From the NCBI RefSeq assembly GCF_053078305.1, contig NZ_CP166879.1: 64,000 nucleotides of DNA; one strand, written 5' to 3'. Under the pieces are notes generated by a model. The model made no database searches, was not told the DNA's origin, and saw only the letters and a program-made list of their open reading frames with translations. Shown here in pieces: positions 17,607-30,819 of this stretch (positions within the stretch are counted from its first letter, which is position 1; each line of letters begins with the position of its first letter). The position numbers and the translations under genes are program-made.

Positions 17607-18594
17607 AATAATGCCAGGGCAAGATTACGAAAGCCTTCTCCCCGCAAGGACTGACGCCAGGTAGTTTCTGTCCATGGCTGCTTTTCGCATCTTACGTCTT
17701 AACCCTGCCTTGAATACCTTATCATTCGTCAAAATATTAATAGCAATGTGCCGTATCCCTGAAAATAATTCTGCTGCATTTCCTCTTCTTATTTTGCAGT
17801 CGTCTTCATTCATTACCACGTCCAGACGCCAGTGCAGCTTATTCTCCACGTGCCAGTGGTTTCGGATTGCTGTGGCGAACTTCTCTGCGGTTAAATCAGC
17901 AGAACTGATATAATATCTGACCGTCATTTCTGGCTCTTTCTTTTGTTCTGCTATTATTGAGCGAAATGAGACTGCCATGCATAATTTCTTCAGCCCTTTC
18001 CATTCAAACGTGAAATCAATAAGTTCATCAGGGATATCGCAGACAATATGGAGACGGATTTTAATGACATGAATCGCTCCCCTGCGGCGACTCTTGTCAT
18101 AAGAGTGCCGGAGCGTTTTTCCATCAATTGCAATGACGTCTTTATCATCTGAAGAATGGCAGTCACGCATCCAGTTAATAAAGCACTCGTGAAATTTTGC
18201 AGGACTGATACAGGATACAACTCTGGCAATGGTATCGTGAACAGGAATACCATTTTCAAAATCACCATATTGCTTCAAAAAATCGAGATGTGTTTCCCCA
18301 AAATCCTCTATATCTTCCCAACCTTCTGCACCAGAAACAACGGCACAAATAATCAACAGTAGAATATCCGATAATTTATGTTCCACTTTCCAGGCTTGTC
18401 TGTAATCGGGGATAATAGAAATATGTTCCATCAATTTTTTAAGTTCCATTTTGTTTCCTTAATTATGTAAGGAGTATTTGATCATGTATAAGCAATAAAA
18501 AACAGCTTTAGGTAATGAGGAACATATCAATTTTTAAACATAAAATGCGAATTATTTAGTACAAAAAGTGTACTTCCGATGATCTTTCCCTGCC
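17607..18594 (-). mobile_element. H-repeat (ISAs1-family) element, copy A, with internally deleted transposase
   Basis: Ends defined by where similarity to copy B (24395–25377) and to the remnant at 30421–30577 starts and stops. Confidence 0.6.
17625..18449 (-). CDS. H-repeat-associated protein / ISAs1-family transposase with an in-frame internal deletion (274 aa instead of about 378 aa)
   Basis: [32 protein letters not shown] ... matches the H-rpt protein (YdcC-like); about 100 central residues are missing between ...AIHVIK and IRLHIVCD... Confidence 0.8.
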
Positions 18595-18862
18595 ATTAAA
18601 TAATGTCTTATTTGACCTTGCCAACATACAACAAAATAATTGAAATATATTCAAAATTAATTTAAACATTCATCAGGCGTCCTTTTCTAAAAAACCTAAT
18701 CATTTAATGGTTAAATTACAATCAAACAAACAAAGTAAACTGGAATTATAGTTGTGGTGCACTTCACGATTTTAGCATTCTTGCTCCTACATTTATACTC
18801 TCTGCCGCGGAAATTTGTTCTCGAAACTTAACTAAACCCAATCAATCATCCTTGCCTTATCG

Positions 18863-19366
18863 TTACTTGAATTTATCAAGACATTTATCATTGCTGACAC
18901 TTTCAATATTTATATGATATACAGTTCCTGTGTTTGAGATATATACTTCCTTAAGCTTATCAGTTTTACTCTCATTATTATAAAAGTAGCCCCCGATAAT
19001 TTTATTCTTCTTTGATATATAAGTGACAGTGTCAGTATGAACTCCACCATTTATTGTCATAATGAATGAGGCATCCAAGTTCATCGTACTTTCCCCCTTA
19101 AAATATATTTTACCATTAGAAATCACTTTGGTCTCAGAAACACCGTTAGGCTCGTCATTACTAATTAATATAAGTAAATCTACCATTTCGGATTTTTTAT
19201 CTCTTTCTTTATAACCACCAATATCATCCAGGATATTATTTGACACTTTTCCACAAAGCATCACTGAGTAATTATTCAAATTTTTGAGTTGAGAGCACTT
19301 TGCCACAAAAGAGAATGAAATAAATATCAAACCTACCGAAATGATTATTGTTTTTTTAAAATTCAT
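18863..19366 (-). CDS. Putative immunity protein for the upstream effector; secreted/periplasmic (signal peptide)
   Basis: 167 aa, hydrophobic N-terminal signal sequence, AT-rich; starts 4 nt after the effector stop. Confidence 0.55.
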   Translation of the reverse strand: MNFKKTIIISVGLIFISFSFVAKCSQLKNLNNYSVMLCGKVSNNILDDIGGYKERDKKSEMVDLLILISNDEPNGVSETKVISNGKIYFKGESTMNLDASFIMTINGGVHTDTVTYISKKNKIIGGYFYNNESKTDKLKEVYISNTGTVYHINIESVSNDKCLDKFK

Positions 19367-19370
19367 TGTT

Positions 19371-21449
19371 TTAAAGAATCCTTATGTAATTAAGTGGAGG
19401 TGTTATTTCATCATTCAATACATACCAAGAATGCTCAAATGCTGGCCAACGCACTAAATCGAAGCCATCTGCTGCTGGGTTTATTCGCCGTGTAACTTCT
19501 CTGGCATCTGACAAACTACATCCTTTATCCGCCCAATAATTAACGCCTAAACTACCACTAGGTGTCAATCGATGGCTTACCATTATGTATTTTTGCTTAC
19601 TTGCCCAAAAGTATCCCCCGGCATCGCAAGAAAAATAGGCATTTTCAACTGGGAGTTGGTTATTGGGTTCTGTAGTAAAAAAATCATCATCTGACGGATT
19701 TCTATACTTTCCATAATTTCTATAATTCTCACGACCAGTTAGATGTATGGTACCTCTGCCTTTAAATCTTGCACCATCACCAACAACATTATTTCCAAGC
19801 TTAAGTCCCTGTTCTGTTCCTGGCTCATACATATCAAAATAACTCGAATCACCATTCTCTATAAAAGACGCAAATCTGCCTGTTTCTCTCGCCATCTGAC
19901 CGAAATAATGCGCAATCCGCAATGGGGTTGTAATTAAGTACTTCCTTAGTGACTTTGACAGTTCATTTTTCAACCCTGCAGGTCTTATCACCTCACCACT
20001 GCTATTTTGTCCTTGGCTAGTAATCCGCTCAATTAGAGTGTCTTTACTTAATGGTCTTGTAAGTTCTGATGTCATGGGATAAGCATTTTGATAACGTCTT
20101 ACCACACTTATAATATCATTTTCTCCTAACCACCCACATTTCCTGAAATGTGCAATAAACTGCCTGGGATCAAAATGCCATACACGCCTGGCAGGTAACG
20201 GATTATCTACCAAACAAAGCGCCTTACAGTGTTCTATCAGCAAATCCAGGTCAGGCTCTGTCATCGGCTTACTCAATACGTCATTGGGTGATTTCAGCCA
20301 CTCAAACCGTGATTCCACGGTGGCGCTGTCCCATTCTAGCGGAAAATGACAAATCATCCGACTTAGGTCATTGCGGGTTGTACACAGGATTGTTGGTGAA
20401 TTGCACTGGCTGTTGGTGTCCGCATCATCGTTCACCAGTTTCCACCCTGTCCAGTGTGGAAAATCACCGTCGCTGTAAACCCTGATATCTCTCGCCCCTA
20501 AGTTAACAACGCCTTTACCCTGTGGCGTATTGATTGTTCGCCACAGCGGCGCATCCGCCGGGACTAATTCTTCATATTCTGTATTAACAACCCGACCAAA
20601 ACGCAGCATCTCATAACCGGCACTTGGGCTTTTCGGATAGAGTTGCAGCGCGTAGGAATAGAGATTGTATTCATAATCCTTACCATCAGCATTAATCAAG
20701 GGAGAACCTACTTCAGTATAGGTATCACTCAGCACTTCATGCTGCTGACGCGTCACCATCGTACAATTGCCTTTATCAAAACTCATTGTGACATACAATG
20801 GCACGCTGGTTCTTTGTACCGGACTGTTGTTCGCAAGCGAGTTTTCTTCCGGCATGTCCCCATAAATCGGTGTTCCGGCAGGGAGATAAAAATGACTATC
20901 ACCGTAAACCACATCAGTTCGTCCATCTTTATTCAGGTCTGTTTCCGGTGATATTCTTCCTGTGATTTTCTGAATGTTTTCATCATCACAAAAAATCTGA
21001 AAATGAAAGGCGTTCTGTCCGTCCACCATCCCTGCTGCACCAACCGGTTCTTTCCGGTATAGCGTGTTTCCCGGCTGCACATTACTGTCAATGCTTCTCA
21101 GGTGCATATATAATGAGTAATAGACGATTTTACCCTCTTCTCCACTACCGATTTCTGTTTCATGTTTTATCAGAACATAGCCTTTATCCGTAACTCCGTT
21201 ATAATTTAACGGAGGAACTGTATTTTCCGCTGGTTCTGGCTGGCGTATTGAAATAACCTTCCCATCGGCAATACACCTAACAGTCTCTGACAGATTGCCG
21301 TTCAAATGAACTCCACCATGCCAAGAACGACCGCTATTCATTGGGAAATTTCTTTCTGGATCAACAGACATCATTCTGTTTACCCAGTCAGAGTCTTTTT
21401 CAGTGTCTATATGCGCATGCAATATTGGAGGGCTGATTATCATTATCAA
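19371..21449 (-). CDS. Putative T6SS cargo effector, 692 aa: N-terminal LytM/M23-like domain and C-terminal GH19/lysozyme-like domain (peptidoglycan hydrolase candidate)
   Basis: N-terminal motifs WHGGVHL ... GYVLIKHE ... YYSLYMHL resemble degenerate M23 motifs; C-terminal FKGRGTIHLTGRENYRNYGKY and GGYFWAS resemble GH19 signatures; immediately downstream of vgrG. Confidence 0.6.
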   Translation of the reverse strand: MIMIISPPILHAHIDTEKDSDWVNRMMSVDPERNFPMNSGRSWHGGVHLNGNLSETVRCIADGKVISIRQPEPAENTVPPLNYNGVTDKGYVLIKHETEIGSGEEGKIVYYSLYMHLRSIDSNVQPGNTLYRKEPVGAAGMVDGQNAFHFQIFCDDENIQKITGRISPETDLNKDGRTDVVYGDSHFYLPAGTPIYGDMPEENSLANNSPVQRTSVPLYVTMSFDKGNCTMVTRQQHEVLSDTYTEVGSPLINADGKDYEYNLYSYALQLYPKSPSAGYEMLRFGRVVNTEYEELVPADAPLWRTINTPQGKGVVNLGARDIRVYSDGDFPHWTGWKLVNDDADTNSQCNSPTILCTTRNDLSRMICHFPLEWDSATVESRFEWLKSPNDVLSKPMTEPDLDLLIEHCKALCLVDNPLPARRVWHFDPRQFIAHFRKCGWLGENDIISVVRRYQNAYPMTSELTRPLSKDTLIERITSQGQNSSGEVIRPAGLKNELSKSLRKYLITTPLRIAHYFGQMARETGRFASFIENGDSSYFDMYEPGTEQGLKLGNNVVGDGARFKGRGTIHLTGRENYRNYGKYRNPSDDDFFTTEPNNQLPVENAYFSCDAGGYFWASKQKYIMVSHRLTPSGSLGVNYWADKGCSLSDAREVTRRINPAADGFDLVRWPAFEHSWYVLNDEITPPLNYIRIL

Positions 21450-21590
21450 TAGTCCTTATTAAGCTTATAAAACATGTAACGAGTATGAATTATTCATTCA
21501 CAGAGCATCTCTGCTTAGAAAGCAGAAAATCACAGTATTATTGTATTATTACTACCGTCATCCGTTATCTTTATCTGAATGATTATCCCA

Positions 21591-23737
21591 CTACGAGAAC
21601 ATGAACTTCACTCTGGTCTCATCATTACCGATATCATCATCAGTATTACTATCCGTATCATTAGTGACTAAAGTGTTCAGGACAGTGGGTTGCAGTGTCG
21701 GTACCGGTGTCCCCGGACTCCCCCCACCATTAAGATTTATCTTCGGCCCCACTATATCCACGCCGCCCGGCTGAATAACGATAAACGAGCCACCCACCTT
21801 CAGGCTTATCCGGCTGCTGCTCTCCAGCACGATATCCCCGTCCACCTTTATCCCCAGCGCGCCACTCACCTTCCTCGCCAGGTCCCCCTTCACCACCAGG
21901 CTGTGTTTCCCCTCCACCAGACTGATATGGTTCCCCGTCGTCTTATGCTCCTGCTTCCCTTCCACCGTCACTTTACGGTCGTTTCTGACGTACAGACCGT
22001 CATCGTGACTCACGCTCACCGTCCGGTCATTCGTCACCTTCAGAGTCTGGTCATTACGTACTGTGATACGCCGGTCGTTCGCCACCGTGATACTCTGGTC
22101 GTGGCCCCCTCTTTTTTTGTACCGACCTGAACCGTCTGGCCCTTCACCACCGTTATCTTCTGGTCGTTACCAATGGTTTCCGTGTGGTCATGCTTCACGT
22201 CCGTCGTCCGGTCGTTGAGCACTTCCGTATCCATGTTCTTCTGCGCATGGATATACACCTGCTCATTACTGGTGGCGTCTTCAAACCGCAGCTCGTTAAA
22301 TCCGCTTCCTTTATAGGTTTTTGACCGGATGGTCATCTGCGTCTTCGTTCCCGGCAGGTCGCCCGGCGAACGGTTGTCCTCATGGTACGTCCGCCCCATG
22401 ATTATCGGCTGGTCCGGGTCGCCGTTCAGGAAGTCCACTATCACCTCCTGACCCACCCGCGGTATCGCCAGATTACCGAACCCCGGCCCCGCCCACGCCT
22501 GCGATACACGCACCCAGCATGAACTCGCCTCCGTCATCCCGTGATAACGGTCCCAGTGGAACTTCACCCGTACCCGGCCATGTTCATCGCAGAAGATTTC
22601 CTCTCCCGCAGGCCCGGTGACAATGGTGCTCTGTGGCCCGTCCACCTTCGGTTTGCTTTGCAGCCGTGGACGCCACGTCCGGTCTGCCGGTATCACCTCT
22701 AACTGATTTCCCAGTGTGGTTCCTCTCCCCTGGCTGCCGTGCAACGCCTGCGGCTGGCTTCCTGACAGTATGCTCTGTACCACCTGCCATTCACGGTTCA
22801 GCATCTTCTGCGGATGCCCCGTCAGCGTAAACCGCGTTCCCGGCCACAGCTTCGGTGAATTACTCTGCCCTGTGGCCTTTTCCGCATCACTGCGCAGGCT
22901 GTCCATCTGATACAGCGTGAAATCCTTGCCGTGCTGCTCATCCTTGAACCTTCCCGGATAATCAAATATCTCGTACTGCGCGTGCTGTCCGTTCAGCCTC
23001 TCACCCTGCTGTTCGTATATCCCCGGCCAGTCCGGCACCTTAAACGTGTAATCCTGACTCTGCACCGACGACGGGCGGACATGCGCCTCATAACGGAACA
23101 TACTGAGACACTCCGTCTCCGCTCCTGCCGATGTGTCCGGGTTAAACGGAAGCTCTCCCGCCTGTGACAGCCCCGCCACATCGTCGCACAGCGTCAGCTT
23201 CTGCTCCGGGCTGTCCGCCGCAAACCGCTCAAAGAAGAAAATCCCCTCCTCCGCCCACAGCCGGGACAGAAACGCCAGGTCGCTCTCTCCGTACTGGACA
23301 CAGAACTCCCGCGCCGGATGGTCCTCATAAAACAGCGGCGTCCACTCCGTGACGCCGTTCTCGTTCAGTAACGTGGCCGATATCGTCCGGATATCCTGCT
23401 GCTGAAAAATACGAAAGTTCTGCCGCAGCCCGCACCGCCATAACGGCGGCTCAATACGCAGGTGATAACGCATCTGCCAGCCGTTGTTCTCCTGCATGCC
23501 AAAGCCCGCCACCACGCCAGTGACATAACGCAGCGGAATGACGCCCTGCCAGATGGTCAGCGTTGCGTTCTTCTCCAGCAGCATCTCCGCCGTCTGCATA
23601 AAAGAGTCGCTGGCAACATCCACACTCATCACAAACGGATAAGACTGGTTCTGGATTAACCTGAAATTCACCACTGCAAAGGTGTCCGGCTCCTGGCCGT
23701 CAACCTCCAGCGTAAAGCGAAGACCTTTTAAGGACAT
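21591..23737 (-). pseudogene. vgrG: vgrG (T6SS spike protein), copy A, disrupted by a 1-nt deletion in a homopolymer (C5 on + strand at 22105–22109); ORFs 22040..23737 and 21591..22085 are one gene
   Basis: Conserved VgrG motifs LRFTLEVDG, GLRQNFRIFQ, GPQS.IVTGPAGEEIFCDEHGRVRVKFHWDRY, NLAIPRVGQEVIVDFLNGDPDQPIIMGRTYH; reading through the G-run restores ...KKEGGHDQSITVANDRRITV... as in copy B. Confidence 0.8.
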
Positions 23738-24180
23738 AAATACCTCTCTGGTATATCAGCCTATATTTACCGTGCCGCCACCAATAACCACGCCGCCGCA
23801 GTCAATGGCATCACCGGTTCTGGCGGCGGGCAGGCCGTCAATAAAGACGGTTGAAGAGCCTCTGGCGATTTTTCGGGGATGAGGTGGATGCTTCGGTTTA
23901 GCATGCGGCGTCGGCGGATCTCCCTGACGGGCTGCGGGGAGACCATCGATAAAAACGGTGGATGACCCGGCGGTGATGACGGTCTCGTAATAACCGTCGT
24001 GCTGAGTGCCTTTGTCGGTGAGTTTGGCTGCTAAAGGCATAATTCCTCCTGTTCAGAATTTCTACAGCAGCAGGTTTCAAAAATCCGGAGAAATATTCAA
24101 CGAAACATTAATCACTTCACCGGATATTCTGACACGTACCTTCACTAGTCTATTTAAGTAATACAAATTGTTGGCGTGTA
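22128..24180 (-). repeat. Duplicated PAAR–vgrG 5' segment, copy A (paralogous to 28368–30420, high but not perfect identity)
   Basis: Near-identical nucleotide stretches including the leader upstream of PAAR (taattcctcctgtt(c/a)agaatttctacagcagcaggtttcaaaaatccggag...). Confidence 0.85.
23756..24040 (-). CDS. PAAR-repeat protein (T6SS spike tip), 94 aa
   Basis: Two GLPAAR(Q/T)GD motifs; directly upstream of vgrG. Confidence 0.8.
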   Translation of the reverse strand: MPLAAKLTDKGTQHDGYYETVITAGSSTVFIDGLPAARQGDPPTPHAKPKHPPHPRKIARGSSTVFIDGLPAARTGDAIDCGGVVIGGGTVNIG

Positions 24181-24394
24181 ATACCCCATTCTCCTTTCAT
24201 TATCTTTGCCTTTAAAACAGAAAGTTCTTGAAATATATATTTAAGGAAAAAACCACGATAAACACCACAAGGATAATATAAATCACCAAGTTATCGAAAA
24301 TTTAAAAAATCACGCGTCAGATCTGATAAAAAATAGGCTATCACATGTAACTCCTGGGCGATCTCGCAAAAATTAAATTATAAAAATACATGAC

Positions 24395-25377
24395 GCAGGG
24401 CAAGATTACGAAAACCCGCTCCCCGCAAGGACTGACGTCAGGTAGTTTCTGTCCATGGCTGCTTTTCGCATCTTACGTCTTAACCCTGCCCTGGATACCT
24501 TATCATTCATCAAAATATTAATAGCAATGTGCCGTATCCCTGAAAATAATTCTGCTGCGTTTCCTCTTCTTATTTTGCAGTCGTCTTCATTCATTACCAC
24601 GCCCAGACGCCAGTGCAGCTTATTCTCCACGTACCAGTGGTTTCGGATTGCTGTGGCGAACTTCTCTGCGGTTAAATCAGCAGAACTGATATAATATCTG
24701 ACCGTCATTTTGGGATTTTTCTTTTGTTCTGCTATTATTGAGCGAAATGAGACTGCCATGCATAATTTCTTCAGCCCTTTCCATTCAAACGTGAAATCAA
24801 TAAGTTCATCAGGGATATCGCAGACAATATGGAGACGGATTTTAATGACATGAATCACTCCCCTGCGGCGACTCTTGTCATAAGAGTGCCGGAGCGTTTT
24901 TCCATCAATTGCAATGACGTCTTTATCATCTGAAGAATGGCAGTCACGCATCCAGTTAATAAAGCACTCGTGAAATTTTGCAGGACTGATACAGGATACA
25001 ACACTGGCAATGATATCGTGAACAGGAATACCATTTTCAAAATCACCATATCACTTCAAAACATCGGGATGTGTTTCCCCAAAATCCTCTATATCTCCCA
25101 GTCTTATGCACCAGAAATAACGGCGCAAATAGTTAACAGATAGAATATCTGGCAATTTATGTTCCACTTTCCAGGCTTGCCTGTAATCGGGGATAACAGA
25201 AATATGTTCCATCAATTTTTTAAGTTCCATTTTGTTCTCCTTAATTATGTAAGGGGTATTTGATCATGTGTAAGCAATAAAAAACAGCTTCAGGCAATAA
25301 GGAATATCTCAATTTTCAAACATAAAATGTGAATTATTTAGTACAAAAAGTGTACTTCTGATGATCTTTCCCTGCCC
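24395..25377 (-). mobile_element. H-repeat (ISAs1-family) element, copy B, degraded
   Basis: Homologous to copy A over its whole length, with the same internal deletion plus extra substitutions and indels. Confidence 0.6.
24406..25231 (-). pseudogene. H-repeat/ISAs1-family transposase pseudogene (frameshifted N-terminal region; same internal deletion as copy A)
   Basis: ORF 24406..24951 encodes the C-terminal part ([20 protein letters not shown]...); the N-terminal [11 protein letters not shown]... lies in other frames near 25231. Confidence 0.7.
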
Positions 25378-25453
25378 TTGTTTATTAGGTATATACCATA
25401 AATACTGAGTATTTTATTGTGCTATTTGTTTATTAAAAATTTGCGAGCAATAA

Positions 25454-25933
25454 TTAAAGATTGCCATCTTCATTGCCGACGAAATAAATATCAAATGAAC
25501 ACTCCAATCCAAGATTAGCCATTATTTTCATCTGCTCAGGCCATAAAGTTGGCCCACCGTGCCAATTCAATGATCTCCAGGTACAGTCAATACCCATTGA
25601 AATATTTTCTAATGCTTGCAATTTTGCAATATTTGATGATTTAGGTCCAAGTTTGTGAAGTAGCCAATCCAGATGTTCTCGAATATCTTTCGAGTTCACT
25701 AGATTTTCTGACGAGAGCATCCAATATGAATTTTTTGCATATCTTTTCTTTCCCGATAGAGTAATAATTTCATCTCCTTTTATATTAATTGATGTTGGCT
25801 CAAGTTCTAAGTGAATACTTATTTCATTAGGGTGAGTATTACCTGTGTAAATCAAGAGGCTAGCATAGCACTCATCACAACTTGGATATTCATGAGATAT
25901 CGGGGTAAGCCTTGATTGTATATTCTTAATCAT
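25454..25933 (-). CDS. Putative immunity protein for effector B; cytoplasmic, 159 aa
   Basis: No signal peptide; start overlaps the effector stop (translational coupling); AT-rich. Confidence 0.5.
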   Translation of the reverse strand: MIKNIQSRLTPISHEYPSCDECYASLLIYTGNTHPNEISIHLELEPTSINIKGDEIITLSGKKRYAKNSYWMLSSENLVNSKDIREHLDWLLHKLGPKSSNIAKLQALENISMGIDCTWRSLNWHGGPTLWPEQMKIMANLGLECSFDIYFVGNEDGNL

Positions 25934-27063
25934 AAATAATCCTCTATGTTTCCTAAAATATTTCCTGAGTCATCAATATAATCACCATTATCAAGTATTC
26001 GACCATGGTGATCACCTCGTAAGCGTAAATCTTTTTTCAACTTTTCTAAAGCTTTCCCCCATTCTCTCCTGTTAATATTTTTACCAAAAAATTCATTTAA
26101 CTCCCTGGCAGTTCTTGCCTCAAGAGTATTACCTCCAGTTTGTAATACTCTCGGAACTCTTCCCGCAGCGCCAACGCTTGGAGGAACAGGAATAGGCAAT
26201 CCATTTGCATCCAGCACAATTTTAGCACCGCTCCTCCCCATTCTGCCAACCGATTTTATTGCAAACTTCGCTGAAAACTTGACCAAACCTTTCACCAGTG
26301 CTCCAACCCCGGTCATAAGTTCCAGCCATGGCTCAACCTCCATCGCCATTGCTTGGGTTTCATTGGCAGGTTTCAACAATGGCTCTCTAGGATCAATAGT
26401 TTCCATTACCTCCCTGTTGGTCTCATTCGCCCGCTCCATAATTTGGGTATCCATCCCCAACCCTCTCGCCAGAGCAATATTACTTTCCATTTGGGCAATG
26501 TCATTTTGCATCTGACCTTTGGCAATCAATGCACCCAACATATACCAGCCATTAATAAATGCCTTGCCTAATCCTATCATTGCATCTGCTTCTTGCTTTT
26601 TGGACTCAAGCTCAAACTCTTGCTGTTGTCTTTGCAGTTCCAGATACCTGGCCCAAAGCGATGATTCTTTAACAGGTATTATCTGATTTGGCAGGTTTGT
26701 CTGGGTATACAGTTTTCCAACAGTATTATCATTATTCATGGCAACCAGCGAAAGATTCCTGGCTACCGGCTTTCCCTTGCACTTTATATGATCCACGCCT
26801 GTCAGTATCCGGCAGTCACCGCTGCCCAGACTGGTGCCAGAACTGACACCTTTCCCGGCATTACTTCGTGTACCTGCAATAATACAGTCCACGGTCAGTA
26901 CTGGATTGCCCCGTGCCCTGACATTGCTGATATAAATTTTCTCATGTGTCAGGTCCTGAAAGCTGTCAAACGGCACTATCGCATCACCAACCTTGCAGAC
27001 ATCAGGCGCAATACATATCGCAACGTACTTCGATTCACGACAACCAATATGATTTTCAGCCAT
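25930..27063 (-). CDS. Putative T6SS effector, 377 aa: N-terminal PAAR-like (DUF4150-type) domain fused to a C-terminal toxin domain of unassigned family
   Basis: N-terminus ...YVAICIAPDVCKVGDAIVPF... resembles the PAAR-like DUF4150 signature; downstream of vgrG and an adaptor-like gene, followed by an overlapping small ORF. Confidence 0.55.
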   Translation of the reverse strand: MAENHIGCRESKYVAICIAPDVCKVGDAIVPFDSFQDLTHEKIYISNVRARGNPVLTVDCIIAGTRSNAGKGVSSGTSLGSGDCRILTGVDHIKCKGKPVARNLSLVAMNNDNTVGKLYTQTNLPNQIIPVKESSLWARYLELQRQQQEFELESKKQEADAMIGLGKAFINGWYMLGALIAKGQMQNDIAQMESNIALARGLGMDTQIMERANETNREVMETIDPREPLLKPANETQAMAMEVEPWLELMTGVGALVKGLVKFSAKFAIKSVGRMGRSGAKIVLDANGLPIPVPPSVGAAGRVPRVLQTGGNTLEARTARELNEFFGKNINRREWGKALEKLKKDLRLRGDHHGRILDNGDYIDDSGNILGNIEDYL

Positions 27064-27997
27064 GAGGTCCCCTCTGCTCCGTCGTCAAAACAATACGTTG
27101 TGGAAGAGAATCCACGGGGAGCGTTAAGCGCCAGAGTAGTGTTAGTTGCTCATCGTCTGTGTGGATGGTCAGTGTGTCAGCCAACAATGGGCGCAGTTCT
27201 ACGTTTTTATCAGAGCGGTAAAACAAATACGCCAATAGTCTAATATCTGGAAGGAAACAAATTTGTTCCATTTTAGAAGGTAATAGGCCGTTCAATATAA
27301 TTTTTTCATTGCCAATTAAATAACCATCGTATTGTTGTTCTGGTGGAGAATAATTCATGAATGCAAAATCGAATTCATCTGGATAAAAAGGTTGAACAGT
27401 CTTTTGCCACTGTTCTGTAAAACCTCTGGCATAGCGCAATCGTGAAGGCCAGCTACGGCAAATAGCTCCTGGTGAGGCAGATAACTGTGGAGCTGGACAG
27501 GGCGATTTATCGCCAAGCGTTATCAGGGAGGGAATAACAATGCCTACAGGATTAAATTCACTGGCTGACGCCAGTTCATGGCGTAACAGTACCCGATCAG
27601 TTAATTCAGGTTCGCTAAGTTGCCAGCGGTTAGATATATATTGCCATTGGCAAGGGCCACATATATCAAATTGGCGCTGAAGATTACCAACCTGTAAACT
27701 GGCCTGCCATCGAGTGGTTTCCCCGGTGGCATGCCATGCGTGTCCATTTAATAAAACATCTGCCCTGACTTTTCTGCAAACCAAATCGGTTGCTGTTTTA
27801 AGACTGCTGCTTTCCGGTTCGCCGTACCAGGAGTCGGTCATCAGTGGCAGTCGCTGCTCATCCGCAATCAGACAGAGACCGCCGCTATATGAAAAATCAA
27901 ATGTCTGATTAACTACCACTACTGTGAATAACTCACCATAATATCCCACTTTTTCGAACTGAAAGTGAGGTAAACCAGTTTCATTTTCAATATTCAT
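27056..27997 (-). CDS. Putative T6SS effector adaptor/chaperone (DUF2169- or DUF4123-like by position), 313 aa
   Basis: Lies between vgrG and the PAAR-like effector; overlaps the effector start by 8 nt; no recognisable catalytic motif. Confidence 0.4.
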   Translation of the reverse strand: MNIENETGLPHFQFEKVGYYGELFTVVVVNQTFDFSYSGGLCLIADEQRLPLMTDSWYGEPESSSLKTATDLVCRKVRADVLLNGHAWHATGETTRWQASLQVGNLQRQFDICGPCQWQYISNRWQLSEPELTDRVLLRHELASASEFNPVGIVIPSLITLGDKSPCPAPQLSASPGAICRSWPSRLRYARGFTEQWQKTVQPFYPDEFDFAFMNYSPPEQQYDGYLIGNEKIILNGLLPSKMEQICFLPDIRLLAYLFYRSDKNVELRPLLADTLTIHTDDEQLTLLWRLTLPVDSLPQRIVLTTEQRGPHG

Positions 27998-28012
27998 GTT
28001 AATTTCTCCAGA

Positions 28013-29977
28013 TTAATCCAGATCAATATCTGCGCCGAAAATATTGATTTTATCTTTTCCTTCAATCTGGATACTTTTACCATTGAGAATGATAGTACCG
28101 TCCTTATTCATTTTCAGTAAGCATTCACCGACTTTAATGGTGAGGCTGTTGGTAACTGTCAGGCTGTAATCTTCTCCAACTTTAATATCCTGGGATTTCA
28201 CGACTTCTTCGGTATCTTTTCCTATTATCTTACTGATTTGATCGTTCCCTACATCCTTGTGACGATCGTGGGTAACATCCAGCCGCTGATCGTTTTGTAC
28301 CGTAATGGTCTGGTCATTCGCCACTGTCACTTTCTGGTCATGACCACCTTCCTTTTTGCTCCCCACATTCACCGTCTGGCCCTTCACCACCGTTATCTTC
28401 TGGTCGTTACCAATGGTTTCCGTGTGGTCATGCTTCACGTCCGTCGTCCGGTCATTCAGCACTTCCGTATCCATGTTCTTCTGCGCGTGAATATAGACCT
28501 GTTCCTTATCTGTGGCGTCCTCAAAGCGCAGCTCGTTAAATCCGCTTCCTTTATAGGTCTTCGACCGGATGGTCATTTGTGTCTTCGTTCCCGGCAGGTC
28601 GCCCGGCGAACGGTTGTCTTCATGGTATGTGCGTCCCGTCACAATGGGCTGGTCCGGGTCGCCGTTCAGAAAGTCCACTATCACCTCCTGACCCACACGC
28701 GGTATCGCCAGATTACCGAACCCCGGCCCCGCCCACGCCTGCGATACACGCACCCAGCATGAACTCGCCTCCGTCATCCCGTGATAACGGTCCCAGTGGA
28801 ACTTCACCCGTACCCGGCCATGTTCATCGCAGAAGATTTCCTCTCCCGCAGGCCCGGTGACAATGGCGCTCTGTGGCCCGTCCACCTTCGGTTTGCTTTG
28901 CAGCCGTGGACGCCACGTCCGGTCTGCCGGTATCACCTCTAACTGATTTCCCAGCGTGGTTCCTCTCCCCTGGCTGCCGTGCAGCGCCTGCGGCTGGCTT
29001 CCTGACAGTATGCTCTGTACCACCTGCCATTCACGGTTCAGCATCTTCTGCGGATGCCCCGTCAGCGTAAACCGCGTTCCCGGCCACAGCTTCGGTGAAT
29101 TACTCTGCCCTGTGGCCTTTTCCGCATCACTGCGCAGGCTCTCCATCTGGTACAGCGTGAAATCCTTGCCGTGCTGCTCGTCCTTGAACCTTCCCGGATA
29201 ATCAAATATCTCGTACTGCTCCAGCTGTCCGTTCAGGTTCTCACCCTGCTGCTCATACATCCCCGGCCAGTCCGGCACCTTAAACGTGTAATCCTGGCTC
29301 TGCACCGACGACGGGCGGACATGCGCCTCATAACGGAACATACTGACACACTCCGTCTCCGCTCCTGCCGATGTATCCGGGTTAAACGGAAGCTCCCCCG
29401 CCTGTGACAGCCCCGCCACATCGTCGCACAGCGTCAGCTTCTGCTCCGGGCTGTCCGCCGCAAACCGCTCAAAGAAGAAAATTCCCTCCTCCGCCCACAG
29501 CCGCGCCAGAAACGCCAGGTCCGACTCCCCGTACTGCACACAGAACTCCCGCGCCGGATGGTCCTCATAATACAGCGGCGTCCACTCCGTGACGCCGTTC
29601 TCGTTCAGTAACGTGGCCGATATCGTCCGGATATCCTGCTGCTGGAAGATACGGAAGTTCTGCCGCAGCCCGCACCGCCATAACGGCGGCTCAATACGCA
29701 GGTGATAACGCATCTGCCAGCCGTTATTCTCCTGCATGCCAAAGCCCGCCACCACGCCGGTGACATAACGCAGCGGGATGACGCCCTGCCAGATGGTCAG
29801 CGTCGCCTTCTTCTCCAGCAGCATCTCCGCCGTCTGCATAAAAGAGTCGCTGGCAACATCCACACTCATCACAAACGGATATGACTGGTTCTGGATTAAC
29901 CTGAAATTCACCACTGCAAAGGTGTCCGGCTCCTGGCCGTCAACCTCCAGCGTAAAGCGCAGACCTTTTAAGGACAT
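28013..29977 (-). CDS. vgrG: VgrG (T6SS spike protein), copy B, intact, 654 aa, with a C-terminal tail distinct from copy A
   Basis: Same conserved VgrG motifs as copy A; C-terminus ...KVGEDYSLTVTNSLTIKVGECLLKMNKDGTIILNGKSIQIEGKDKINIFGADIDLD differs from copy A. Confidence 0.88.
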   Translation of the reverse strand: MSLKGLRFTLEVDGQEPDTFAVVNFRLIQNQSYPFVMSVDVASDSFMQTAEMLLEKKATLTIWQGVIPLRYVTGVVAGFGMQENNGWQMRYHLRIEPPLWRCGLRQNFRIFQQQDIRTISATLLNENGVTEWTPLYYEDHPAREFCVQYGESDLAFLARLWAEEGIFFFERFAADSPEQKLTLCDDVAGLSQAGELPFNPDTSAGAETECVSMFRYEAHVRPSSVQSQDYTFKVPDWPGMYEQQGENLNGQLEQYEIFDYPGRFKDEQHGKDFTLYQMESLRSDAEKATGQSNSPKLWPGTRFTLTGHPQKMLNREWQVVQSILSGSQPQALHGSQGRGTTLGNQLEVIPADRTWRPRLQSKPKVDGPQSAIVTGPAGEEIFCDEHGRVRVKFHWDRYHGMTEASSCWVRVSQAWAGPGFGNLAIPRVGQEVIVDFLNGDPDQPIVTGRTYHEDNRSPGDLPGTKTQMTIRSKTYKGSGFNELRFEDATDKEQVYIHAQKNMDTEVLNDRTTDVKHDHTETIGNDQKITVVKGQTVNVGSKKEGGHDQKVTVANDQTITVQNDQRLDVTHDRHKDVGNDQISKIIGKDTEEVVKSQDIKVGEDYSLTVTNSLTIKVGECLLKMNKDGTIILNGKSIQIEGKDKINIFGADIDLD

Positions 29978-30420
29978 AAATACCTCTCAGACATATCAGC
30001 CTATATTTACCGTACCGCCACCAATGACCACACCACCACAGTCGATGGCATCACCGGTTCTGGCGGCGGGCAGGCCGTCAATAAAGACGGTTGACGAGCC
30101 TCTGGCGATTTTACGGGGATGAGGGGGATGCTTCGGTTTAGCATGCGGCGTCAGCGGATCTCCCTGGCGGGCTGCGGGGAGACCATCGATAAAAACGGTG
30201 GATGACCCGGCGGTGATGACGGTCTCGTAATAACCGTCGTGCTGGGTGCCTTTGTCGGTGAGTTTGGCTGCTAAAGGCATAATTCCTCCTGTTAAGAATT
30301 TCTACAGCAGCAGGTTTCAAAAATCCGGAGAAATATTCAACGAAATATTAATCACTTCACCGGATATTCTGATACGTACCTTCACTGGTCTATTTAAGTA
30401 ATACAAATTGTTGGCGTGTA
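28368..30420 (-). repeat. Duplicated PAAR–vgrG 5' segment, copy B
   Basis: Paralogous to 22128–24180. Confidence 0.85.
29996..30280 (-). CDS. PAAR-repeat protein, copy B, 94 aa
   Basis: Near-identical to 23756..24040; two PAAR motifs. Confidence 0.8.
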   Translation of the reverse strand: MPLAAKLTDKGTQHDGYYETVITAGSSTVFIDGLPAARQGDPLTPHAKPKHPPHPRKIARGSSTVFIDGLPAARTGDAIDCGGVVIGGGTVNIG

Positions 30421-30577
30421 TTAAGTTCCATTTTGTTCTCCTTAATTATGTAAGGAGTATTTGATCATGTATAAGCAATAAAAACAGCTTCAGGAAATAA
30501 GGAATATCGCAATTTTTAAACATAAAATGCGAATCGTTCAATACAAAAAAGCAGCGTTGCGTAATCTTTCCCTGATT
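30421..30577 (-). mobile_element. H-repeat left-end remnant (about 155 bp; transposase ORF deleted after the first codons)
   Basis: ttaagttccattttgttctccttaattatgtaaggagtatttgatcatgtataagcaataaaaa... matches the 5' ends of copies A and B. Confidence 0.65.
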
Positions 30578-30819
30578 AAATACGCTACCGCCCTACTCTG
30601 ATGACATGATCTGCACTGCACTATCATATCGACATGTTTCTCTACATGCGAAGAGATGTTTTATTTTCGGATTATATTAAATTGATATTTCATATAAAAA
30701 ACGAAATTACATCAATCATATAAATAATTGTATCAACTTTAATTACTATTCATAGCAAACAAATGGATATCCAGTTAACTACGCCAGTGATTCATTAACA
30801 TTAACCTCCGGCATTATTG

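Follow-up and report, generated by a model that had tools for sequence, protein, structure and literature searches.

Two PAAR–VgrG–cargo modules at the pptA–yncG locus

The stretch of DNA analysed here (the window; 64,000 nt of assembly GCF_053078305.1, contig NZ_CP166879.1) is part of an Escherichia coli chromosome and covers the pptA–yncG locus, a chromosomal hot spot that we take to be the site of the RhsE/H-repeat element in K-12. At this locus we found two tandem modules, A and B, each made up of a PAAR gene, a gene for the VgrG (TssI) spike protein of a type VI secretion system (T6SS) and cargo genes, with all described genes on the minus strand. Our results make it likely that these are orphan, exchangeable PAAR–VgrG–cargo cassettes with a common 5′ handle, that they load their cargo in two different modes, and that module A is crippled by a frameshift.

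The gene order in module B is PAAR, VgrG-B, DUF2169, a Tox-PAAR-like effector and a DUF4279 protein, and in module A it is PAAR, VgrG-A, an effector annotated 'M23' and a 167-amino-acid (aa) open reading frame (ORF). The preliminary description of the window had a large hydrolase-like effector follow copy A of VgrG and an adaptor plus a PAAR-like effector follow copy B, which agrees with what we observed: the 'M23'-annotated protein, tipped with a GH19 domain, lies downstream of VgrG-A, and DUF2169 and then the Tox-PAAR-like protein lie downstream of VgrG-B.

Over 18800-30500 (11.7 kb) the window matches strain A16 at 99.8% identity, and three further complete genomes at 99.4-99.5%. In a comparison set of 5426 E. 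coli genomes, used for the counts of the whole arrangement and of tail B DNA, the complete two-module arrangement was found in only 4.

A duplicated handle with diverging tails

The 5′ part of the two modules consists of the following features.

29996..30280, minus strand: PAAR gene of module B (94 aa), Pfam PAAR_motif (PF05488), E 9e-21; within the duplicated block
23756..24040, minus strand: PAAR gene of module A (94 aa), Pfam PAAR_motif (PF05488), E 5e-20; within the duplicated block
28013-29977, minus strand: VgrG-B, intact, 654 aa
28370..29977, minus strand: conserved core of VgrG-B, residues 1-536 (gp27-like hub, OB domain and beginning of the gp5-like beta-helix; Phage_GPD, Phage_base_V, Gp5_trimer_C)
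21591-23737, minus strand: VgrG-A, split into ORFs of 565 and 164 aa
22130..23737, minus strand: conserved core of VgrG-A, residues 1-536, with the same Pfam domains as copy B

The PAAR motif makes up a small stand-alone protein in both modules, and the two copies are identical in 93 of 94 aa, differing at one residue. Both VgrG copies match PF05954 (E 6e-75), PF04717 (E 3e-14) and PF22178 (E 1e-31), and the VgrG/TssI architecture of gp27-like hub, OB-fold and gp5-like C-terminal beta-helix is complete in both. Alignment of the two modules revealed a duplication of 2115 bp with 95.2% DNA identity (A, 24183..22073; B, 30423..28312), which spans about 140 bp 5′ of PAAR, the PAAR gene and VgrG codons 1-536. 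Identity in a sliding window drops from at least 0.9 to about 0.5 across 22160-22040, a decay over ~100 bp.

In the preliminary description about 600 N-terminal residues of the VgrGs were said to be almost identical; the near-identity itself stands, but its extent is shorter, 536 residues with 522/536 identical, followed by a segment (residues 537-571) that is still recognisably similar. After correction of the reading frame of copy A, tail A comprises 179 aa (protein of 715 aa) and tail B 118 aa (protein of 654 aa), with 51 of 117 positions identical. Most of these identities fall in residues 537-571, where the tails are about 65% identical; the distal parts retain a weak similarity of beta-helix repeats (about 25% identity, z = 4.7 vs shuffles), and the ends are unrelated. 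The C-termini thus differ, as claimed, and both peptide strings quoted in the preliminary description are present in the sequence.

Among VgrGs that share this core, 113 cluster representatives fall into ~19 C-terminal classes. At the pptA–yncG locus of other strains the handle is joined to other tails and other cargo (M35-like, DUF4123 and other DUF2169 types).

The cargo-linked part of tail A

Tail A is nested, with two segments that differ in their distribution.

21675..22129, minus strand: beta-helix extension of VgrG-A, residues 537 to about 687, generic; 641 genomes
21594..21674, minus strand: extreme C-terminus of VgrG-A, NTLVTNDTDSNTDDDIGNDETRVKFMFS; proposed effector-binding tail RVKFMFS at 21594-21614

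The beta-helix extension, which ends …NLNGGGSPGTPVPTLQPTVL, occurs at about 90% DNA identity in 641 genomes, and 126 of 134 aa are identical to the 801-aa VgrGs of CFT073, UTI89 and 042. In these 801-aa proteins, as in that of EC1, the helix is followed by a Gly/acidic linker and an extra domain of ~75 aa, and the next gene, M35-like (aspzincin) and small, overlaps the stop of vgrG. In a DUF4123-linked VgrG of CFT073 this helix leads to a different end again. The helix quoted for tail A in the preliminary description (…ISLKVGGSFIVIQPGGVDIVGPKINLNGGGSPG…) is therefore not cargo-specific, since the same extension is found on VgrGs with M35-like or DUF4123 cargo. The part of that claim that holds concerns the last ~28 aa, and within them chiefly the terminal …[KR]-F-x-F-S-COOH, which track the effector: together with the downstream spacer the ~28 aa were found in 21 E. 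coli genomes, in 17 of them directly beside the M23-annotated effector. In an alignment, RVKFMFS at the end of VgrG-A falls opposite YTLQFHF, with which the extra domain of the 801-aa VgrGs of CFT073, UTI89 and 042 begins. A Pfam scan of this ~75-aa domain returned no family, and a TTR-like label considered for it was not applied.

The strongest evidence for a cargo-specific peptide comes from a comparison across genera. Genomes of Enterobacterales, Neisseriales, Burkholderiales and Pseudomonas carry homologues of the effector (30-69% identical), and at 58 loci the gap to a VgrG upstream of the homologue is no more than about 60 bp, or 141 bp in the window. The 58 partner VgrGs are of Gp5-type and DUF2345-type, 685-1015 aa long, and fall into seven classes of tail context that are otherwise unalignable. 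Ser is found among the final three residues of all 58, Phe at -1 in 50, an aromatic residue at -3 in 50 and Pro at -7 in 32, with ends such as …RVKFMFS, …PPVRFVFS, …PSKFLFS, …PPVKFFFS, …PIKRWLFS, …SSNFSFS, …HKYPFSL and …NTHPFSE. A terminal aromatic-x-F-S is present in 50/58 VgrGs directly upstream of effector homologues, a count that overstates independence, as many of the pairs are phylogenetically related, so that the ~7 tail classes are the safer number. Among the 113 same-core VgrG cluster representatives the motif was found in only two, one of which is tail A.

Serine in the motif is encoded by all four TCN codons and phenylalanine by both of its codons, and this free codon variation argues that selection acts on the protein. 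A constraint on the nucleotide sequence, for example an overlapping ribosome-binding site, was considered and rejected, since the codons vary and the motif is kept despite the 141-nt gap here. Our sequence comparisons thus suggest that the cargo-specific determinant of tail A would be the peptide at the very C-terminus rather than the long beta-helix. The available part of the article on the related WHIX effectors (PMC12135965) makes no mention of a conserved aromatic-x-F-S-COOH on partner VgrGs.

A second and commoner E. coli paralogue of the effector (787 aa, 42% identical, a cluster of 681 members) lies downstream of a DUF2345-type VgrG ending …EPPVKFFFS.

The effector of module A

Downstream of VgrG-A lie the effector and a small ORF.

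19371-21449, minus strand: cargo effector of module A, 690/692 aa (690-aa form 19371..21443), annotated 'M23 family metallopeptidase'; WHIX-like/LytM-like N-domain and GH19-type C-domain
18863..19366, minus strand: ORF of 167 aa whose N-terminus is hydrophobic, 5 nt downstream from the effector gene; putative periplasmic immunity protein, no Pfam match

The M23 annotation is doubtful in terms of catalysis, as the Pfam M23 score of the effector (23.5 bits) is below the gathering cut-off of 28.7 and the catalytic HxxxD and HxH motifs are lacking; in their places we found WHGGVH, with His for Asp, and FHFQ, with a single His. WHGGVH is at aa 43-48 of the 692-aa ORF, and its W, H, G and G are invariant in 40 homologues. 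Using the sequences of the WHIX prototype from V. alginolyticus and of Awe1, taken from the supplementary model files of PMC12135965, we observed a clear match to WHIX region 1, by BLASTP to the prototype (E 4e-8) and by hhalign to both the prototype (96.2%, E 2e-9) and Awe1 (97.3%, E 1.7e-11). On this basis we call the effector WHIX-like rather than WHIX: region 1 is matched, region 2 lacks a significant match and the accession lies outside the published dataset.

The AlphaFold2 (AF2) model of the effector has a predicted template modelling score (pTM) of 0.86, and Foldseek found a LytM-like fold in its N-terminal part (lysostaphin, E 1.5e-6; LytM and EnvC, TM ~0.6) and a GH19-like fold in the C-domain (E 9e-8, TM 0.76). 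The C-terminal ~200 residues (aa ~484-690) also match GH19 endolysins in a search of PDB sequences (9ms7, E 5e-19). Region 1 corresponds to aa 31-155 and has a LytM/M23-like fold with degenerate catalytic motifs, and the LytM-like halves are contiguous in the E. coli effector as compared to the bipartite WHIX of Vibrio and Aeromonas. The WHIX cavity may thus be a degenerate M23 substrate groove.

The 167-aa ORF is a putative periplasmic immunity protein for the module A effector, and effector homologues in other genera are likewise trailed by small ORFs.

Tail B and its DUF2169/PIPY cargo

The 3′ part of module B is made up of the VgrG-B tail and three cargo genes.

28013..28369, minus strand: VgrG-B tail, residues 537-654 and stop; 121/5426 E. 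coli genomes
28016-28180, minus strand: cargo-linked tip of VgrG-B, last 55 aa, …SLTIKVGECLLKMNKDGTIILNGKSIQIEGKDKINIFGADIDLD; conserved across genera
27056..27997, minus strand: DUF2169 accessory protein (chaperone role according to PMC11883445), Pfam DUF2169, E 8e-50
25930..27063, minus strand: Tox-PAAR-like (DUF4150/PIPY-type) effector of 377 aa; aa 16-116 match Pfam Tox-PAAR-like (E 1e-10)
25454..25933, minus strand: DUF4279 protein, Pfam DUF4279, E 2e-18; overlaps the effector stop

In the 121 genomes tail B DNA is at least 99.7% identical (one copy 94%), and the DUF2169 gene abuts it in all 60 copies sampled. VgrG-B and its cargo were also compared with the orthologous DUF2169 and Tox-PAAR-like modules of Rahnella, Buttiauxella and Salmonella. 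The last 55 aa of VgrG-B are 82-91% identical to the orthologues, as compared to 55-74% in the core and 49-67% in the mid-tail. A similar gradient was seen in the cargo, where the PAAR-like N-domain (N-terminal 120 aa) of the effector is 72-78% identical, DUF2169 59-66% and the toxin part 33-37%. In strain A30 a different DUF2169 subfamily pairs with a different VgrG end. That tail B is linked to its cargo is thus borne out, since the tail tracks the DUF2169/PAAR-like genes, and the link narrows from the whole tail to its last ~55 aa, the tip of the beta-helix, which is co-conserved with the PIPY domain.

At aa 28-32 of the effector the sequence AIVPF resembles the P(I/V)P(Y/F) motif, with V-P-F kept and the first Pro missing. 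Its toxin part (aa ~120-377, 25930-26700) had no Pfam match, and orthologues of the effector bear other toxin domains, e.g. Ntox30. From its position, the DUF4279 protein is the putative immunity protein of module B; a signal peptide is not obvious in it, in keeping with a toxin that would act in the cytoplasm.

VgrG-A is frameshifted

The reading frame is intact in copy B and interrupted in copy A, at one homopolymer.

22105..22109, minus strand: G5 homopolymer, 1-nt deletion that frameshifts VgrG-A; an A7 run lies directly 5′ in the gene

When one G was inserted in the G5 run, VgrG-A read through to 715 aa, and the corrected protein agreed in length and sequence with the intact alleles of ECNB21-M121 and JX21CE8. 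The window shares the G5 allele with A16, PS10-3 and ES5 (annotated 'frameshifted' by PGAP in all three strains), and a G6 allele is carried by A30, ECNB21-M121 and JX21CE8, of which the last two encode an intact 715-aa VgrG. A sequencing error as the origin of G5 was rejected, since the same allele occurs in at least four independent, otherwise near-identical complete genomes. VgrG-A is thus a frameshifted pseudogene in this strain's lineage, and tail A is here an evolutionary signature and probably, because of the frameshift, not a working determinant.

The effector and putative immunity ORFs of module A are intact in the window. In ES5, VgrG-A and the effector are both frameshifted; in A30, VgrG-A is truncated at the N-terminus, yet carries G6; and in AST215 a 108-aa remnant of the tail ('cons domain protein') between ISAs1 copies is the sole survivor of module A. 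As a delivery device module A is probably dead or decaying. The frameshift and the further decay in relatives illustrate how cassettes are being lost while the immunity gene is kept.

Proposed loading of cargo and alternative explanations

We propose that the 5′ handle (about 140 bp, PAAR and VgrG 1-536) would fit each spike to a common machine and at the same time offer a substrate for homologous recombination, and that the 3′ part of each cassette would be inherited together with its cargo. In module B, the PAAR-like (PIPY/DUF4150) N-domain of the toxin would cap the conserved ~55-residue VgrG tip, replacing PAAR, with the DUF2169 protein as the chaperone of this domain. In module A, the generic beta-helix extension would lead through an acidic linker to the short …RVKFMFS-COOH peptide, and this free C-terminal tail most likely inserts in the WHIX-like (degenerate LytM-fold) cavity of the GH19 hydrolase. 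With no adaptor, the effector would then be carried at the side or the end of the spike, followed in the gene order by its putative periplasmic immunity protein. The G6-to-G5 deletion lies eight codons into the A-specific tail and cuts VgrG-A short ahead of it in this strain's lineage.

Several observations weigh against this model. Tail and cargo are adjacent DNA, so the linkage within E. coli could be plain co-inheritance, and only the conservation across genera argues for function, where the relatedness of many VgrG–effector pairs reduces the number of independent cases as noted above. The physical contacts between tails and cargo are proposed by homology to experiments in Aeromonas, Vibrio and Pseudomonas. 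When the last 24 aa of VgrG-A were fused to the effector by a 30-aa linker, (GGGGS)x6, and modelled with AF2, with tail B as control, tail A was undocked and disordered with a predicted local distance difference test (pLDDT) score of 24-30, in a construct that lacked the VgrG trimer; the control tail B formed a free hairpin (pLDDT ~50). For WHIX region 2, pairwise alignment and local hhalign of the mid-part gave only short, sub-significant patches (E 0.025-0.08, incompletely colinear), among them HFQIFCDD/HLELFSDD and VWHFxP/VWHLHP. The effector, WP_000587243, and three allelic accessions are absent from the supplementary dataset of PMC12135965, including its tree file. In module B, a canonical PAAR gene lies directly upstream of VgrG-B although the cargo is itself a PAAR-like tip protein, which leaves two candidates for the tip. 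This PAAR gene belongs to the duplicated handle.

Could the tails be equivalent after all once the frameshift is corrected, with no cargo-specific difference between them? Both do extend the same type of gp5-like beta-helix, and the similarity of residues 537-571 and the weak one further on point the same way. The alignment nevertheless refutes this reading and leaves it next to no probability: the proteins differ in length (715 vs 654 aa) and share 51 of 117 tail residues, copy A is ~60 residues longer, including a linker and a terminal motif without match in B, and the terminal 55 aa of B have no counterpart in A. A more serious alternative is that the tail differences are hitch-hiking, with tail and cargo exchanged as a block, the specificity residing in PAAR, in DUF2169 alone or in Hcp, and the tails interchangeable. 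Physical linkage alone would give the tail–cargo association seen in E. coli, the PAAR genes of the two cassettes are nearly identical and the AF2 linker test gave no docking of tail A. We nonetheless regard it as very unlikely, as the aromatic-x-F-S is kept on unrelated tail architectures (Gp5-type and DUF2345-type), in different bacterial orders and with free synonymous codons, and the last 55 aa of tail B, like the PIPY domain, are much better conserved than the remainder of the protein to which they belong. PAARs that differ at one residue only cannot encode the difference, and in homologous systems truncation and swap experiments showed the tail to be necessary and sufficient for specificity (PMC8668125 and PMC12135965).

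A third possibility concerns the state of VgrG-A, which would still be functional if the lesion were an assembly error, if the G-run were phase variable or if the frame were restored by +1 transcriptional slippage in the A7 run. The lesion does lie in a homopolymer context (AAAAAAAGAGGGGG, 22105-22125), where one extra A in the transcript would, hypothetically, restore the frame with a single E-to-R change, the downstream effector and immunity genes are intact in the window, and the population holds both G5 and G6 alleles. An assembly error is contradicted by the presence of G5 in at least four independently sequenced complete genomes, and in the related strains ES5, A30 and AST215 the module has decayed further. 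For slippage to be efficient, runs of 5-7 bases are short; rescue in the A7/G5 tract is unlikely, and we likewise judge a functional VgrG-A to be unlikely overall.

Returning to the model of exchangeable cassettes with two loading modes, the data allow a bolder extension, which we offer tentatively and consider possible rather than probable. WHIX-carrying VgrGs might be marked by a universal C-terminal tag, P-x-x-[KRD]-[FYW]-x-F-S plus 0-2 residues and the free carboxylate, that is read as a pseudo-substrate by the degenerate LytM/M23-like groove of the WHIX domain, and the E. coli family would then be a WHIX subfamily with a contiguous LytM-like domain, outside the published list. If this were true, the C-terminal tag alone would predict VgrG–effector pairing across Proteobacteria, and it could be grafted on any VgrG to load WHIX-type effectors.

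Relation to known systems

Cargo selection by divergent tails on near-identical VgrG cores is an established principle, which the present locus leaves unchanged. In A. dhakensis, VgrG1-3 have near-identical cores and divergent C-terminal tails that dictate effector specificity, and tail swaps switch it (PMC8668125, with earlier studies on Agrobacterium tumefaciens, enteroaggregative E. coli, Vibrio parahaemolyticus and Pseudomonas aeruginosa cited there). The tail swap suggested as a check in the preliminary description has thus been carried out before, in Aeromonas dhakensis, and gave the result expected. Here as there, the cores are near-identical, the C-terminus diverges and each vgrG has its own effector and immunity gene downstream, accompanied or not by a chaperone. 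In contrast to VgrG1-3, the E. coli copies are tandem orphans with their own PAAR genes, one is a pseudogene and tail A is nested, and the locus is known by sequence.

For module A the closest parallel is Awe1 of Aeromonas jandaei. Fridman et al. 2025 (PMC12135965) showed that Awe1 depends on the last 14 residues of VgrG4 both for binding through its WHIX domain and for delivery, and they modelled these residues (…KVSFSGR) inside the WHIX cavity. The E. coli effector shares with Awe1 the WHxxxH, WHIX region 1 and, at the C-terminus, a chitinase-like/GH19 domain for peptidoglycan hydrolysis; it is encoded directly downstream of vgrG, with no adaptor and with a putative periplasmic immunity gene next, and VgrG-A, like VgrG4, ends with …F-S near the C-terminus. 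It differs in that the LytM-like region is contiguous, similarity to region 2 is not demonstrable and the partner VgrG is frameshifted.

Module B resembles the DUF2169–PIPY–VgrG modules described by Sachar et al. 2025 (PMC11883445), who showed experimentally that the three proteins form a tip complex in which DUF4150 'PIPY' domains cap the VgrG tip instead of PAAR and need a cognate DUF2169 chaperone. As in their synteny type B, vgrG, a single-domain DUF2169, a DUF4150/Tox-PAAR-like toxin and a small ORF lie in a row. Unlike those modules, the one described here has a canonical PAAR directly upstream of vgrG, and the PIPY-like AIVPF of its effector lacks the first Pro of P(I/V)P(Y/F); Sachar et al. 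found DUF2169 genes to be rarely near PAAR genes. The modules also resemble the orphan 'vgrG islands' of E. coli with VT effector modules and diverse peptidoglycan-targeting effector–immunity pairs (Ma et al. 2018, BBA Gen Subj 1862:1635, as summarized in a review, PMC6730261), with an orphan vgrG next to a peptidoglycan-targeting effector and immunity gene.

The general claim of the preliminary description, that the tails match the type of cargo, is therefore upheld by the comparative linkage found here and by published swaps and truncations (PMC8668125, PMC11883445 and PMC12135965); it needs amending in that the determinants are narrower than claimed and VgrG-A is broken in this strain. What the locus adds is incremental: the nested tail A, the association of aromatic-x-F-S with WHIX-like cargo, the co-conserved 55-aa tip and a canonical PAAR gene that lies, unusually, upstream of a VgrG with PIPY cargo.

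In compact form, this natural locus illustrates the diversification of a T6SS payload by a recombination-friendly handle and exchangeable tail–cargo cassettes, with two proposed loading modes side by side: replacement of the tip by PIPY, and a C-terminal peptide for a WHIX-like hydrolase. The aromatic-x-F-S and the 55-aa tip can be used to predict VgrG–effector pairing from sequence, a modest but real gain. Further uses are the annotation of 'M23 family metallopeptidase' genes beside vgrG as T6SS cargo and the design of chimeric spikes.

T6SS machinery in strain A16 and mobile elements around the modules

In the closely related strain A16 the T6SS core is apparently intact, on the yafV side of the aspV region, with tssK, tssJ, tagH, tssG, tssF, tssE, tssC and tssB, then hcp and tssI, and therefore the orphan spikes have a machine to plug into. 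From the near-identity to A16 we infer that the strain of the window also has the core cluster. The VgrG of the A16 main cluster is about 87% identical to VgrG-B. This cluster (1009679-1030507) has the order vgrG, DUF6484, DUF2169, hypothetical and DUF4150, synteny type A of Sachar et al., and also carries a further 547-aa PAAR-like protein. A16 thus has at least two DUF2169/PIPY systems, whose DUF2169 proteins share only 26% identity.

A copy of ISAs1 follows each module.

17625..18449, minus strand: ISAs1-family transposase at the pptA-side island boundary; PGAP annotation in A16 and PS10-3, repeat family D1/D4
24406..25230, minus strand: ISAs1-family transposase pseudogene between the modules; PGAP 'frameshifted; internal stop' in A16 and PS10-3

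The two ISAs1 copies (17615-18600 and 24396-25380) are 97% identical, the middle copy being the pseudogene. A junction segment of ~160 bp beside the ISAs1 start occurs a third time at 30417-30579 (63% identity), just upstream of the duplication boundary of module B. The arrangement points to recombination at the ISAs1/junction repeats as the way in which the tandem array grew. A scan of 18.7-30.9 kb for promoters and terminators gave counts no different from shuffles.

Outside the two modules, 2001-5000 of the window may be a further segment gained by horizontal transfer: its G+C content is 0.33-0.36, as compared to about 0.5 elsewhere, and it holds several ORFs (169-425 aa).

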